Shown here: piece by piece, positions 1-3,096 of the stretch | How the letters are laid out: every line of letters begins with the position of its first letter | How positions within the stretch are numbered: position 1 is the first letter of the stretch | Origin: Escherichia coli | GTDB taxonomy: Bacteria; Pseudomonadota; Gammaproteobacteria; Enterobacterales; Enterobacteriaceae | Assembly (NCBI RefSeq): GCF_003334815.1 | Contig: NZ_QOWO01000085.1 | Reading direction: 5' to 3' (one strand) | Length of the DNA: 3,120 bases | Program-made: the position numbers and the translations under genes | Notes under the pieces: model-generated | Databases searched by the model: none | Told to the model about the DNA's origin: nothing | What the model saw: only the letters and a program-made list of their open reading frames with translations

Positions 1-31
1 CGCGGTGAACAGCCCACAGGCAGCGGGGAAC

Positions 32-83: not shown

Positions 84-767
84 ATGTCCCGTTTTGTCCT
101 CGGTAACTGCATCGATGTTATGGCCCGTATTCCTGATAACGCCATTGATTTCATCCTCACCGACCCGCCATATCTCGTCGGTTTCCGTGACCGTTCCGGG
201 CGCACCATCGCCGGCGATAAAACCGATGAGTGGCTGCAACCGGCCTGTAATGAAATGTTCCGCGTGCTGAAAAAAGACGCGTTAATGGTGAGCTTCTACG
301 GCTGGAACCGCGTCGATCGCTTTATGGCCGCCTGGAAAAATGCGGGATTCAGCGTTGTTGGTCACCTGGTCTTCACCAAAAACTACACATCGAAGGCCGC
401 ATATGTGGGCTATCGCCACGAATGCGCCTACATCCTGGCAAAAGGCCGTCCACGTCTGCCACAAAACCCGCTGCCGGACGTGCTGGGCTGGAAATATTCG
501 GGCAATCGCCATCACCCGACGGAAAAGCCCGTTACCAGCCTGCAACCGCTGATTGAGAACTTCACACACCCGAACGCAATTGTGCTGGACCCGTTTGCAG
601 GCAGCGGCTCAACCTGCGTCGCCGCCCTCCAGTCCGGACGCCGGTATATCGGTATCGAGCTGCTTGAGCAGTATCACCGTGCCGGGCAGCAACGCCTTGC
701 CGCCGTGCAACGGGCCATGCAGCAGGGGGCCGCGAATGATGACTGGTTTATGCCGGAGGCTGCGTAA
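84..767 (+). CDS. Orphan site-specific DNA N6-adenine methyltransferase, beta class (N6_N4_Mtase-type, YhdJ-like), 227 aa
   Basis: Strong SD and ATG start. Catalytic motif IV DPPY (nt 162-173) lies N-terminal to the SAM-binding motif I FAGSGST (nt 594-614), the circularly permuted order typical of beta-class amino-MTases. The C-terminal segment HPTEKP...VLDPFAGSGST...GRRYIGIE matches the conserved core of YhdJ-like and plasmid orphan adenine methylases as I recall them. No restriction endonuclease partner is present in the window. Confidence 0.9.
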   Translation: MSRFVLGNCIDVMARIPDNAIDFILTDPPYLVGFRDRSGRTIAGDKTDEWLQPACNEMFRVLKKDALMVSFYGWNRVDRFMAAWKNAGFSVVGHLVFTKNYTSKAAYVGYRHECAYILAKGRPRLPQNPLPDVLGWKYSGNRHHPTEKPVTSLQPLIENFTHPNAIVLDPFAGSGSTCVAALQSGRRYIGIELLEQYHRAGQQRLAAVQRAMQQGAANDDWFMPEAA

Positions 768-989
768 ATGAACTATGCAGGACACGAAAAACTGCGCGCC
801 GAAGTGGCGGAGGTGGCCAATGCCATGTGCGACCTGCGTACAACCATGAATGAGATGGAGCAGCGGTACAGCTTTAATGCCGACACCCTGCCGGAACGTC
901 TGGTGCGTCAGACGCTGTTTCGCGCAAACCGCCTCCTGATGGAGGCATATACCGAAATTCTGGAACTGGAAGCGTGCTTTAAAGATTGA
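768..989 (+). CDS. Hypothetical small protein, 73 aa, translationally coupled to the methyltransferase; function unknown
   Basis: Its ATG immediately follows the methylase TAA stop (TAAATG at 765-770), with GGAGG 9 nt upstream. The protein is predicted helical and mildly acidic, with no motif I recognise. It is followed 13 bp later by the next gene, which has its own SD. Confidence 0.65.
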   Translation: MNYAGHEKLRAEVAEVANAMCDLRTTMNEMEQRYSFNADTLPERLVRQTLFRANRLLMEAYTEILELEACFKD

Positions 990-1002
990 GAAGGAGACGA
1001 GA

Positions 1003-1437
1003 ATGTACGGAACATGCGAAACGCTATGCCGGGAGCTGGCAGTAAAGTATCCGGGAGACATGCCGCTGATGCTGGTTATCTGGTCCCCGGAAGAGATTCA
1101 GGCCCTCGCTGACGGAATGGATATTTCCCTGTCCGATCATGAAATCAGAACCGTCCTGGCGCGCCTGGAGGACATCCCGGAAGACCAGCGGACTGAATCC
1201 GGTATTTCTTCCGGCGTGGCGATGGAGATCATCAATAACGTGAGCGAAAACCGCCAGGTGACCGTCCCTGCTGAACTGCTGGCGTCCCTGATTCAGACCG
1301 CTGAACAGGCATTGTGGAAACGTGAATGGGCCGCCCGGGATCATGGCCTCGCCGTCCCGGAATGCGTCACCCGCCGTCAGGCGGTGATTAATCAGGCCCG
1401 CACCCTGCTGAAAAACAACAGACACGAAAACGACTGA
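1003..1437 (+). CDS. Hypothetical acidic protein, 144 aa; function unknown
   Basis: AAGGAG at 991-996 lies 6 nt before ATG 1003. It is the longest ORF in this span; the antisense ORF 1024-1425 has no RBS. By manual count it has about 23 Asp/Glu against about 14 Arg/Lys. No recognisable catalytic motif. Confidence 0.7.
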   Translation: MYGTCETLCRELAVKYPGDMPLMLVIWSPEEIQALADGMDISLSDHEIRTVLARLEDIPEDQRTESGISSGVAMEIINNVSENRQVTVPAELLASLIQTAEQALWKREWAARDHGLAVPECVTRRQAVINQARTLLKNNRHEND

Positions 1438-1441
1438 TGTT

Positions 1442-1463
1442 ATCGCCGCCTCCGGGCGGCGAT
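1442..1463 (+). other. Intergenic hairpin (9-bp stem ATCGCCGCC / GGCGGCGAT, loop TCCG) between ORF3 and ORF4; no U-tract, so likely an RNA stability or processing element rather than a terminator
   Basis: Perfect inverted repeat seen directly. It is followed by GGGAGA (1467-1472) and ATG 1483 rather than a T-run. Confidence 0.4.
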
Positions 1464-1482
1464 TCAGGGAGAACGATTAATC

Positions 1483-2259
1483 ATGAACGAAAACACAACA
1501 CTGAACGCACTGATTTGTCGTCACGCCCGCAACCTGCTGCTGGCGCAGGGCTGGCCGGAAGAGACGGATGTTGACCAGCGGAACCCGAAGTATCCGGGCT
1601 GGATCAGCATTTATGTTCTGCTGGATGCGCCCCGGCTGGCGATGTTACTCATCAACCGTCACGGCGGCGTACTGCCGCCGCTCCTGGCCTCCGCCATTCA
1701 GAAACTGACCGGAACCGGGGCGGAACTGGTACTGTCTGGCAGTCAGTGGCAGTCGCTGCCGGTACTTCCGGCAGACGGAACACAGGTGTTTTTCCCGTAT
1801 GCCGGAGAATGGCTGACCGAAGACGAAATCAGGGCAGTTCTTGATGCAGTGCGCGATGCGGTACGCAGTGTCAGTTGCCGGGTGGCAGAAGATGCGCAGC
1901 GTATCAGGGCGGCGCTGACCACAACCGGTCAGACGTTGCTGACCCGCCAGACGCGCCGCTTTCGCCTGGTTGTGAAGGAAAGCGATCACCCCTGCTGGCT
2001 CGATGAAGACGACGAAAACCTGCCCGTGGTGCTCGATGCCATCCTGAACCGGGGAGCACGTTTTTCGGCGGTGGAAATGTATCTGGTCAGTGAGTGTGTG
2101 GAGCATATCCTGTCCAGTGGGCTGGCCTGCGATGTGCTGCGTATACCGGATGAACCGCCCCGCCGGTGGTTTGACCGTGGTGTTCTGCGGGAGGTGGTCC
2201 GGGAAGCCCGGGCCGAAATCCGCAGCATGGCGGATGCCCTGGCAAAAATCAGGAGCTGA
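1483..2259 (+). CDS. Hypothetical protein, 258 aa, with an acidic patch (WLDEDDEN); function unknown
   Basis: GGGAGA SD lies 10 nt upstream of ATG 1483. It is a long ORF in the same orientation as the operon, followed immediately by an intrinsic terminator. I see no nuclease, ATPase or HTH motif by eye. The antisense ORFs 1645-2355 and 1986-2312 are low-complexity and lack RBSs. Confidence 0.7.
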
Positions 2260-2263
2260 TGAT

Positions 2264-2287
2264 GGCGGGGAAAATCCCCGCCTTTTT
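2264..2287 (+). terminator. Rho-independent terminator of the methylase-ORF2-ORF3-ORF4 operon
   Basis: GGCGGGG-aaaat-CCCCGCC (7-bp GC-rich stem, 5-nt loop) followed by TTTTT, beginning 5 nt after the ORF4 TGA stop. Confidence 0.75.
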
Positions 2288-2341
2288 CCTGCCGGTCCCG
2301 GACAGAGCACAAAGGACGTCGCCGCCGGCTCCGCTTTACCC

Positions 2342-2370
2342 GGCCATGCGGGCATGGCCTTATGGGTTTT
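2342..2370 (+). terminator. Second hairpin (GGCCATG-cggg-CATGGCC) followed by an interrupted T-tract (TTATGGGTTTT); possible backup terminator or the 3' end of a short transcript
   Basis: Perfect 7-bp inverted repeat seen directly. The downstream T-run is interrupted, so this is weaker than the terminator at 2264-2287. Confidence 0.35.
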
Positions 2371-2657
2371 CAGTTATGTGGCCTCAGCGCCGTGTGCGGG
2401 CTGTGCCGTGCCTCCATCTTAGCCGGGCTGGCGTTGATGCAAGGGTACGCTTCGCCGCTGCGGTCACCCGGTCCCTCCTTCCCGTCTGCCGTGATTTTCC
2501 GGTCGTTCGCCCGCTCAGGTTTCGCGGCCTCACCCTGCAACTCCCGCCAGCCGTGTGCGTCAGGCTGCGGCTTCCCTTGCGCCCCTGCATCCCCGCCTGT
2601 TCGCCCGGCTTTTATGGAGGCACGGCACCGCCCGGTGTCGCGGAATATGTGAACAAC

Positions 2658-2662
2658 GGAGG
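2658..2662 (+). promoter_or_regulatory. Shine-Dalgarno (GGAGG) for klcA
   Basis: GGAGG lies 8 nt upstream of ATG 2671. Confidence 0.6.
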
Positions 2663-2670
2663 AAAACATC

Positions 2671-3096
2671 ATGCAATATGCGAAACCTGTCACTCTGAAC
2701 GTTGAAGAGTGCGACCGTCTCTCCTTTCTACCGTATCTGTTTGGCAACGATTTTCTGTATGCCGAGGCGTATGTGTACGCGCTGGCGCAAAAAATGATGC
2801 CGGAATATCAGGGAGGCTTCTGGCATTTCATCCGCCTGCCGGATGGTGGCGGTTACATGATGCCGGATGGCGACCGTTTTCATCTGGTCAACGGTGAAAA
2901 CTGGTTTGACCGCACTGTGAGTGCTGATGCCGCAGGTATCATCCTGACTTCCCTTGTGATTAACCGCCAGTTGTGGCTGTACCACGACAGCGGGGATGCG
3001 GGACTGACACACCTTTACCGGATGCGCGATGCGCAGTTGTGGAGCCACATCGAATTTCACCCCGAATGCAACGCGATTTACGCGGCACTGGACTGA
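2671..3096 (+). CDS. klcA: Anti-restriction protein, KlcA/ArdB family, 141 aa
   Basis: Good SD and ATG. The protein carries the pattern I associate with KlcA/ArdB anti-restriction proteins: [11 protein letters not shown] ... EAYVYA ... [19 protein letters not shown] ... [10 protein letters not shown] ... [12 protein letters not shown] at the C-terminus. Its size (141 aa) also fits. This is recall of the family, not a database hit. Confidence 0.88.

Follow-up and report, generated by a model that had tools for sequence, protein, structure and literature searches.

The 3,120-nt stretch of Escherichia coli DNA analysed here (contig NZ_QOWO01000085.1 of assembly GCF_003334815.1; referred to at its full length as the window) is, with a probability of about 94%, an internal piece of the leading region of a conjugative plasmid of the IncI1, IncK or IncF type, lying some 9-15 kb from the origin of transfer (oriT) and equipped with hairpin promoters that act on single-stranded DNA (ssDNA). 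Five open reading frames (ORFs), all in one direction on the plus strand, were found in a six-frame listing. The minus strand is the transferred strand and the template of all five genes, because the strand that leaves oriT 5' end first passes ardA, psiB and ssb on its way toward the module. Leading-region genes are generally templated by the transferred strand (PMC7736820, PMC11541004). The five genes, with their lengths in amino acids (aa) and, where legible, their ribosome-binding sites (RBS), are as follows:

84-767, plus strand: predicted orphan beta-class N6-adenine DNA methyltransferase of the M.EcoGIX type, 227 aa, RBS AAGGAG at 72-77
768-989, plus strand: yubE (Hp9 of pESBL), 73 aa, start abutting the methylase stop (TAAATG)
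1003-1437, plus strand: gene for a DUF1380 protein (Hp10 of pESBL), 144 aa, PF07128 at 2.8e-52
1483-2259, plus strand: yubG/YchA (Hp11 of pESBL), 258 aa, last gene of the methylase operon
2671-3096, plus strand: klcA/ardB (YubI/YfgB of F), 141 aa, PF03230 at 2.4e-26, RBS GGAGG at 2658-2662

A megablast search established the distribution of the window: at least 5,000 plasmid records, from Escherichia, Klebsiella, Salmonella and Shigella and including 4,081 typed as conjugative, contain the whole 3,120 nt in colinear form with 90-99.5% identity; because of this colinearity, the five-gene arrangement is not a chance juxtaposition. Among complete E. coli genomes, the window was present in 3,835 of 5,426, at 7,304 plasmid versus 87 chromosomal places, and klcA at 4,926 plasmid versus 59 chromosomal places, the plasmid share being 98.8% for either query. 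The chromosomal matches are presumably integrated plasmids. The best matches, 99.1-99.5% identical, were IncI1 and IncK2/Z plasmids, and DNA identity was 96.4% to pESBL-EA11 of E. coli O104:H4 (hereafter pESBL) and 92.8% to the F plasmid. Where loci are cited by coordinate, L001 denotes NZ_AP029608.1 (99.1% identical), L003 pESBL and L004 F.

Upstream of the window, L001 has parM/stbB, the imp/umu operon, a DUF1281 gene and a small ORF. Downstream, on the strand of the window genes, come a second DUF1380 gene, ssb, a DUF905 gene, a ParB-like gene, psiB, psiA and ardA, and then the relaxase genes nikA/nikB, with nikA beginning 12.1 kb past the right end of the window. The same gene order was found in pESBL, two IncK2/Z plasmids, an IncFIA/FII Klebsiella plasmid and F, with traM/traJ/traY in place of nikAB in the IncF plasmids. 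The oriT/traM region of F lies about 9 kb from the right end of the window, and relaxase genes or traM are found 9-15 kb downstream overall. In all of these arrangements ssb, psiB/psiA, ardA (in the IncI/K plasmids) and the window genes occupy one strand.

Base composition gave a concordant picture. The guanine-plus-cytosine (GC) content was 58.8% for the window and 57.1% for the leading region, compared with 48-51% in the remaining plasmid DNA. Palindromes of 6 bp numbered 25 in the window, against 56.9 +/- 7.8 expected from dinucleotide-preserving shuffles, and 136 in the whole leading region (L001 16774-33000), against 268 +/- 16 expected; they were not depleted in 16 kb of non-leading DNA (246 observed vs 246 expected) or in the nik/trb segment (84 vs 88). 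No EcoRI, BamHI, HindIII, PstI, EcoRV, SalI or KpnI site occurs in the window. GC richness and depletion of 6-bp palindromes have been reported for the leading regions of these plasmid groups (bioRxiv 10.1101/2025.04.03.647016), and our own palindrome count agrees with that report.

The original prediction, made from the letters of the window alone, had proposed an anti-restriction island of a mobile element, located either in a plasmid leading region or among the cargo of a CP4-like integrative element, and had named the flanking genes and the base composition as the places to look. The first option is upheld by the plasmids 92.8-99.5% identical, which carry the module in their leading region: ssb, psiB, psiA, ardA and nikA/nikB or traM were all seen in the near-identical plasmids, the GC contrast given above is in the expected sense, and the flanks consist of plasmid maintenance and transfer genes, not of core chromosomal ones. 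As a calibration, reasoning from a methylase and klcA in raw sequence to a plasmid leading region was correct, and the predicted flanks were found. The second option, in which a CP4-like integrative element or cryptic prophage in the chromosome would carry the module as cargo, draws on the 87 window matches in E. coli chromosomes and on CP4-57 of K-12, which encodes lfgA/yfjX ("putative antirestriction protein"), a RadC-like protease and the yfjZ/ypjF toxin-antitoxin pair. However, LfgA of CP4-57 is only 34% identical to the window KlcA and is the only protein shared, CP4-57 having no homologue of the methylase, YubE, the DUF1380 protein or YubG and no hairpin signature. Furthermore, 98.8% of the window or klcA places are on plasmids, the near-identical records are flanked by plasmid genes, no tRNA gene was found in the 22-39 kb of flanking plasmid DNA, and radC-like, cbtA/cbeA-type or integrase neighbours were not present in the plasmid contexts. 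A CP4-like origin was thus abandoned as very improbable, and the module is read as part of a plasmid leading region.

Within the window, the genes form two operons, one comprising the methylase gene, yubE, the DUF1380 gene and yubG, and the other beginning with klcA. The first four genes are closely packed, with no nucleotide between the methylase gene and yubE (TAAATG), 13 nt between yubE and the DUF1380 gene, and 45 nt between the latter and yubG. In contrast, yubG and klcA are separated by an ORF-poor gap of 411 nt (2260-2670) with 65% GC, and two transcription units are assigned because this gap contains both a terminator and a promoter element. The terminator is the sole terminator-like site in the window in a scan for duplex promoters and terminators, which detected no sigma-70-like duplex promoter anywhere in the window on either strand. 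A perfect 9-bp hairpin, ATCGCCGCC-tccg-GGCGGCGAT, was also noted at 1441-1462 in the spacer between the DUF1380 gene and yubG; it lacks a T-run, did not come up in the terminator scan, and could be an element of mRNA processing or stability or a partial attenuator. The regulatory features of the window are:

1-25, minus strand: gene-proximal arm of a long hairpin 5' of the methylase gene, cut by the left edge of the window
2264-2282, plus strand: intrinsic terminator at the end of the methylase operon, GGCGGGGAAAATCCCCGCC followed by TTTTTCC, 5 nt past the yubG stop
2312-2663, minus strand: putative class 2/ssp2-type ssDNA promoter element, a 352-nt repeat with a second copy immediately upstream of ardA
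2397-2445, minus strand: non-template arm of the hairpin, with TTGCAT (2442-2437), a 15-nt spacer and TAAGAT (2421-2416)
2582-2634, minus strand: template arm of the hairpin, pairing with 2397-2445 (inverted-repeat search and folds with DNA parameters)

The prediction from the letters had further described an orphan methyltransferase and KlcA in one orientation, which is borne out by the ORF listing, by the matches to NF010253, PF01555 and PF03230, and by the absence of an endonuclease neighbour. It had likewise seen no mobility gene in the window, and indeed no relaxase, integrase or insertion sequence (IS)/transposase family was detected among the window ORFs tested by family library scans. 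Its description of short, coupled genes between the two holds for the tight packing of the first four genes, but not for yubG and klcA, which lie 411 nt apart, nor for the length of YubG at 258 aa. What it overlooked is the ssDNA hairpin promoter in the 411-nt gap, the feature that explains the shared gene orientation; a reader without tools tends to miss that a GC-rich, ORF-poor gap is a structured DNA element rather than a spacer.

The element at 2312-2663 is 94-95% identical to the repeats at L001 27256-27608 and L003 13958-14310, which end 8 nt before ardA, and no annotated feature underlies it in any record listed. The hairpin itself is 99.3% identical to that upstream of klcA in pESBL, 96.4% to that upstream of ardA in pESBL and 95.7% to that of F. 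In folds computed with DNA parameters, A2420, A2419 and G2418 of the -10 hexamer lie in a 3x3 internal loop, so that the -10 element of the non-template arm is in part unpaired. As duplex, the plus strand of 2582-2634 reads CTGCAT-N19-TTTTAT, which lacks the first T of the -35 hexamer and the key A of the -10 hexamer, and is predicted to be a poor promoter. Placed 7 nt past the -10 hexamer, the klcA mRNA would start at about A2622, with a leader of about 49 nt.

The hairpin was assessed by covariation over 42 outer-stem pairs in a ten-sequence alignment (A4), for which distant YubG homologues were used to reach diverged leading regions, where the copies of the element are 62-67% identical. In the true register, 91.4% of the cells were in standard pairs, 18 of the 42 pairs showed two-sided compensatory changes and the covariation score was 0.356, compared with 33-41%, 1-7 pairs and 0.04-0.07, respectively, for controls in which the arms had been slid; none of 500 shuffles matched the observed value for any of the three measures, with the proviso that one of the aligned sequences was the source of the structure tested. 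The compensatory changes in 18 of 42 pairs support a long imperfect hairpin on the transferred strand that is maintained by selection. Earlier attempts were replaced. A near-identical nine-copy alignment in RNAalifold had an invariant basal stem, which gave no covariation signal, and indels that scrambled the -35 segment; per-sequence folds and the more diverged alignment were used in its stead. Similarly, a sliding 200-nt fold scan with 12 shuffles was too noisy, and too short for a 240-nt hairpin, so that inverted-repeat searches and full folds were employed instead.

A signature of the form GCCGTGC...TTGNNN-N15/20-TANNNT...GCACGGC was found in 19 copies in the fetched loci, all on the transferred strand and all upstream of a gene, with TTGCAT as the TTGNNN in most copies; there was none on the non-transferred strand in these loci. 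Two forms of the hairpin were distinguished. The window, pESBL and F have a 15-nt non-template spacer, a 5-nt bulge on the template arm and TAAGAT as the -10 hexamer, and the Klebsiella and IncK copies (L005 20026-20247, L006 and L007) have a 20-nt spacer, the bulge on the non-template arm and TACGAT. The last position of the -35 hexamer covaries between the two forms, from T:A to A:T. By its homology to the elements of pESBL and F, the hairpin at 2312-2663 is assigned to the published class 2/ssp2 element, a single-strand promoter and replication roadblock.

The same gap might alternatively encode a protein of 148 aa (2259-2705) or an antisense RNA of the AS-pc01 type, with klcA transcribed from a duplex promoter. 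An ORF of that length does span the gap, and Rfam returned a weak AS-pc01 match on the minus strand at 2260-2359 (26.3 bits, E = 0.099). The score falls well short of the gathering threshold (79), however, and only the 100 nt next to the terminator are matched. The ORF has no family match, is unannotated in every record examined and is not conserved as such before ardA. In addition, the window has no duplex sigma-70-like promoter, the paired columns show compensatory changes, and promoter function is documented by published mapping of start sites through 5' rapid amplification of cDNA ends (5'-RACE; PMC12672017) and by deletion data (bioRxiv 10.64898/2026.01.09.698686). We accordingly regard a gene in the gap as highly unlikely, and the 148-aa ORF was rejected as a gene for lack of any family match or annotation. 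The AS-pc01 family is named for an antisense RNA of the IncFII plasmid pHK01, and its match covers the terminator hairpin and a small hairpin at 2342-2359.

Returning to the hairpins that we take for promoters, a second one precedes the methylase gene, and only its gene-proximal arm (1-25) lies in the window. In pESBL, where L003 4699 corresponds to window position 1, its arms are at L003 4500-4530 and 4693-4723, are 31 nt long and are 84% complementary; the transferred strand of L003 4400-4785 folds with -108.3 kcal/mol (z = -7.06, none of 100 shuffles folding as well), and the hairpin is 94.7% conserved in F. This hairpin is a candidate for the class 3 single-strand promoter described for M.EcoGIX. 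A 103-aa "hypothetical protein" that many records annotate just upstream of the methylase gene (L003 4395-4706, ending at window position 8) largely overlaps this hairpin and may be a by-product of the DNA element, not a real gene. The element is split by ISShdy1, of the IS110 family, in a Klebsiella IncF plasmid (L007 10741-10894 and 12560-12710), and is duplicated on both sides of the DUF1281 gene in an IncK2/Z plasmid (L006 16096-16387 and 17401-17696).

Another hairpin (z = -5.0) lies upstream of the DUF1281 gene, at L003 3277-3441 (pESBL 53,276-53,440) and L004 7634-7854, being conserved in F as well. It carries TTGCAT-N15-TAACGT and a GCCGTGC/GCACGGC stem, its left arm is 72% similar to the class 2 left arm, and it looks like a further, shorter member of the class 2 hairpin-promoter family. 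That family appears wider than published, with copies before DUF1281, a yubG paralogue and another methylase-like gene, all of which share the GCCGTGC/GCACGGC clamps and a pre-melted -10 element. Distant YubG homologues, from plasmids in which they are 25-31% identical, keep their place just upstream of the klcA hairpin. Thus, L008 3005-6904 has a YubG-like gene, a hairpin gap of about 420 nt and klcA, the methylase, YubE and DUF1380 genes being absent, and L010 5381-10459 has two tandem YubG-like genes with a hairpin copy before each. Group II introns (ltrA) were observed in the leading regions of L002 (8997-10721) and L006 (22797-24698), one shortly after the DUF1281-upstream hairpin and the other just upstream of ssb, where a class 1 promoter is expected; structured DNA elements may be preferred targets of such introns.

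The product of the first gene matched NCBIfam NF010253 over its full length (497.5 bits, cutoff 244), Pfam PF01555 at 3.4e-38 and the PADLOC MTase_II model PDLC03228 at 3.3e-144. Its motifs are in the beta-class order (IV before I), with the DPPY and FxGxG motifs intact: the translation has FILTDPPYLVGF near the N-terminus and LDPFAGSGSTC near residue 160, with LTDPPY and DPFAGSGST legible. The enzyme, also known as YfbB of R64 and YubD/YfeA of F, is 94.7% identical to M.EcoGIX of pESBL and 93.4% to the F protein, and on these grounds is assigned to the published M.EcoGIX type. An ordinary type II modification enzyme, surviving from a decayed restriction-modification (R-M) system and acting on duplex DNA of the donor, would also be compatible with MTase_II as the closest PADLOC model and with a C-terminal motif region that resembles CcrM, M.RsrI and DpnA. 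This origin is extremely unlikely in view of the identity to M.EcoGIX, the absence of a restriction endonuclease partner among the window ORFs and the annotated neighbours in seven plasmid contexts, and the consistent location of the methylase gene in leading regions, templated by the transferred strand.

The klcA product aligned with the solved structures of KlcA (PDB 2KMG, 2e-18) and ArdB (PDB 2WJ9, 2.3e-8), is 97.2% identical to KlcA of pESBL and 97.9% to the F protein, and is a predicted antirestriction protein against type I R-M systems. It differs at 4 of 141 residues from the allele common to L001, L002 and pESBL, even though DNA identity of the window to L001 and L002 is 99.1-99.5%, and is slightly nearer the F allele, and the other four window proteins are 99.6-100% identical to those of L001, which suggests local recombination or faster change at klcA.

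Between these two lie three genes whose products matched no annotated PHROG, PADLOC or NCBIfam family. The yubE product matched phrog_4830 (unknown function) at 1e-33, is annotated as "YubE family protein" in NZ_AP029608.1 and had no Pfam match in our scan; its homologue in the diverged locus L010 carries PF27407:YubE, and identity to the F counterpart is only 75%. For the DUF1380 protein, 513 homologues were found, those listed being at least 72% identical and from Enterobacterales, and a paralogue 26% identical is encoded 3' of klcA in the same plasmids; its AlphaFold model is of low confidence, with a predicted local distance difference test (pLDDT) score of 57.8. YubG had no Pfam match in the profile scan, and its fold is predicted with confidence (pLDDT 91.7) and has no solved or annotated structural relative. 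One or more members of the trio might be a new anti-defence or establishment factor, a suggestion we make tentatively and consider rather doubtful; candidate roles would include, for example, the intermediary between M.EcoGIX and DNA polymerase I postulated by Fomenkov et al., or a factor acting at the ssp2 hairpin and roadblock.

Several points weigh against the assignment of the window to a plasmid leading region with single-strand promoters. The plasmid context was read from records 92.8-99.5% identical, not from the window's own flanks, and an integrated chromosomal copy is a minority possibility, given that 87 of 7,391 window places and 59 of 4,985 klcA places are chromosomal. There are 12 differences from M.EcoGIX among the 227 residues of the methylase, whose activity is assigned by homology. 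Two hairpins precede the methylase gene, one before DUF1281 and one directly before the methylase gene, and class 3 may be either. Taken alone, the class 2 region folds with a modest z-score (-2.6), structural support coming from covariation and not from energy. Its 15-nt spacer (20 nt in the Klebsiella and IncK copies) is atypical for sigma-70, and the hexamers could shift by 1-2 bases. Finally, the start at A2622 and a stall site for DNA synthesis at about 2387-2397 are predictions.

Much of the function proposed for the module derives from published plasmids 93-96% identical, from which early transcription of ssDNA, methylase specificity and protection, KlcA/ArdB function and the roadblock are transposed to the window by analogy. 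For pESBL, Yamaichi et al. 2015 (PMC4288162) described the same gene order and found that deletion of M.EcoGIX lowers transfer into recipients with EcoGIII or EcoRI. Fomenkov et al. 2020 (PMC7736820) reported that M.EcoGIX produces N6-methyladenine (m6A) at SAY in single-stranded DNA and on one strand only, has no activity on the duplex, and protects only in the native orientation of oriT. Wen et al. 2025 (PMC12672017) found six pESBL operons whose expression rose by up to about 500-fold in the first 15 min after transfer, and distinguished three classes of single-strand promoter, namely ssi/Frpo (class 1), those 5' of klcA and ardA (class 2) and that 5' of M.EcoGIX (class 3), with start sites determined by 5'-RACE and promoters conserved in F. 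Such transient "zygotic" induction in the recipient, preceding synthesis of the second strand, has been published for F as well as for pESBL. In F, ssp2 drives yfgB, an ArdB homologue, and its stem stalls complementary-strand synthesis until resolved by UvrD (Fraikin et al. 2026; bioRxiv 10.64898/2026.01.09.698686). In the same study, deletion of ssp2 lowered transfer 5-fold against EcoKI, 36-fold against EcoGIII and, into wild strains, from 21-fold to undetectable levels. Inhibition of type I restriction in vivo has been reported for ArdB of R64 and is implied for YfgB of F (bioRxiv 10.64898/2026.01.09.698686).

By extension, the transferred strand would enter the recipient 5' to 3', each gene tail first, and before the complementary strand is made the two long imperfect hairpins would serve as promoters for host RNA polymerase. 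The first, with window 1-25 as one arm, would drive M.EcoGIX, yubE, the DUF1380 gene and yubG, with transcription stopping at the terminator at 2264-2282. The class 2/ssp2 element at 2312-2663 would drive klcA once 2397-2445 has folded opposite 2582-2634, the folded non-template arm presenting TTGCAT-N15-TAAGAT with A-11 to G-9 unpaired, and the duplex form CTGCAT-N19-TTTTAT being presumed inactive. The methylase would then place m6A at SAY on the entering single strand, blunting type II restriction, and KlcA/ArdB would block type I restriction. By homology with ssp2 of F, the hairpin would stall complementary-strand synthesis arriving from the yubG side, probably at about 2387-2397, until UvrD melts it, and this stall would keep klcA and the genes on the oriT side expressed from the single strand for longer. 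Lying upstream of the roadblock, the methylase operon would become duplex and fall silent before klcA and the oriT-ward genes do, and completion of the duplex would switch both promoters off.

The module is medically relevant because leading regions decide the survival of resistance plasmids during the first minutes in a new host. The trio is conserved in thousands of plasmids and grouped in the M.EcoGIX operon, and room for novelty is limited to its function.

The closest of the known systems is pESBL-EA11 (IncI1; PMC4288162, PMC7736820, PMC12672017), which has the gene order, gene lengths and spacings of the window at 96.4% DNA identity, proteins 94.7-98.6% identical, the klcA hairpin at 99.3% and the second copy of it before ardA. 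It differs only by allele: the methylase has 12 substitutions and KlcA has 4, and the colinear segments differ by a net 3 nt in length. The leading region of F from yubD to yubI (yfeA...yffB, yfgB) is colinear at 92.8%, and its hairpin, 95.7% identical, has the same TTGCAT-N15-TAAGAT and the same 3x3 loop; the module lies upstream of ssb, psiB and oriT, as in the relatives of the window. F differs in being a MOBF/MPF_F plasmid, whereas the best matches of the window are MOBP/MPF_I, and in having no ardA and hence only one class 2 copy.

The class 1 promoters Frpo and ssi1-3 (F, ColIb-P9; Masai and Arai 1997; Bates et al. 1999; PMC9849209) follow a like principle, in that a long imperfect hairpin of the transferred strand rebuilds the -35 and -10 elements, and like class 2 they work only when single-stranded and drive leading-region genes toward oriT. 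They differ in that class 1 transcripts prime complementary-strand synthesis, whereas class 2 is also a replication roadblock. A blastn comparison (word size 7, E <=1e-4) with 23 kb of the leading region of F detected no similarity to Frpo, the window matching its colinear copy only, and the authors of PMC12672017 likewise report no homology between class 1 and class 2. The klcA hairpin would thus work like Frpo while falling outside the Frpo sequence family.

KlcA of IncP plasmids (2KMG) and ArdB (2WJ9) (PMC2836571) have PF03230 in common with the window KlcA, the alignment to 2KMG running end to end with E = 2e-18, and are reported to exert antirestriction against type I systems in vivo (PMC2836571). 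The sequence relationship to the window KlcA is distant. In IncP plasmids, klcA is part of the kil/kor regulon and not of a leading-region operon driven by a hairpin. The CP4-57 islands of K-12 resemble the window in having a KlcA-family antirestriction gene in horizontally acquired DNA, but have other neighbour genes and are without methylase, YubE, DUF1380 protein, YubG and hairpin promoter. The context, the methylase, the antirestriction gene and the single-strand promoters are all known, having been described between 2014 and 2026.

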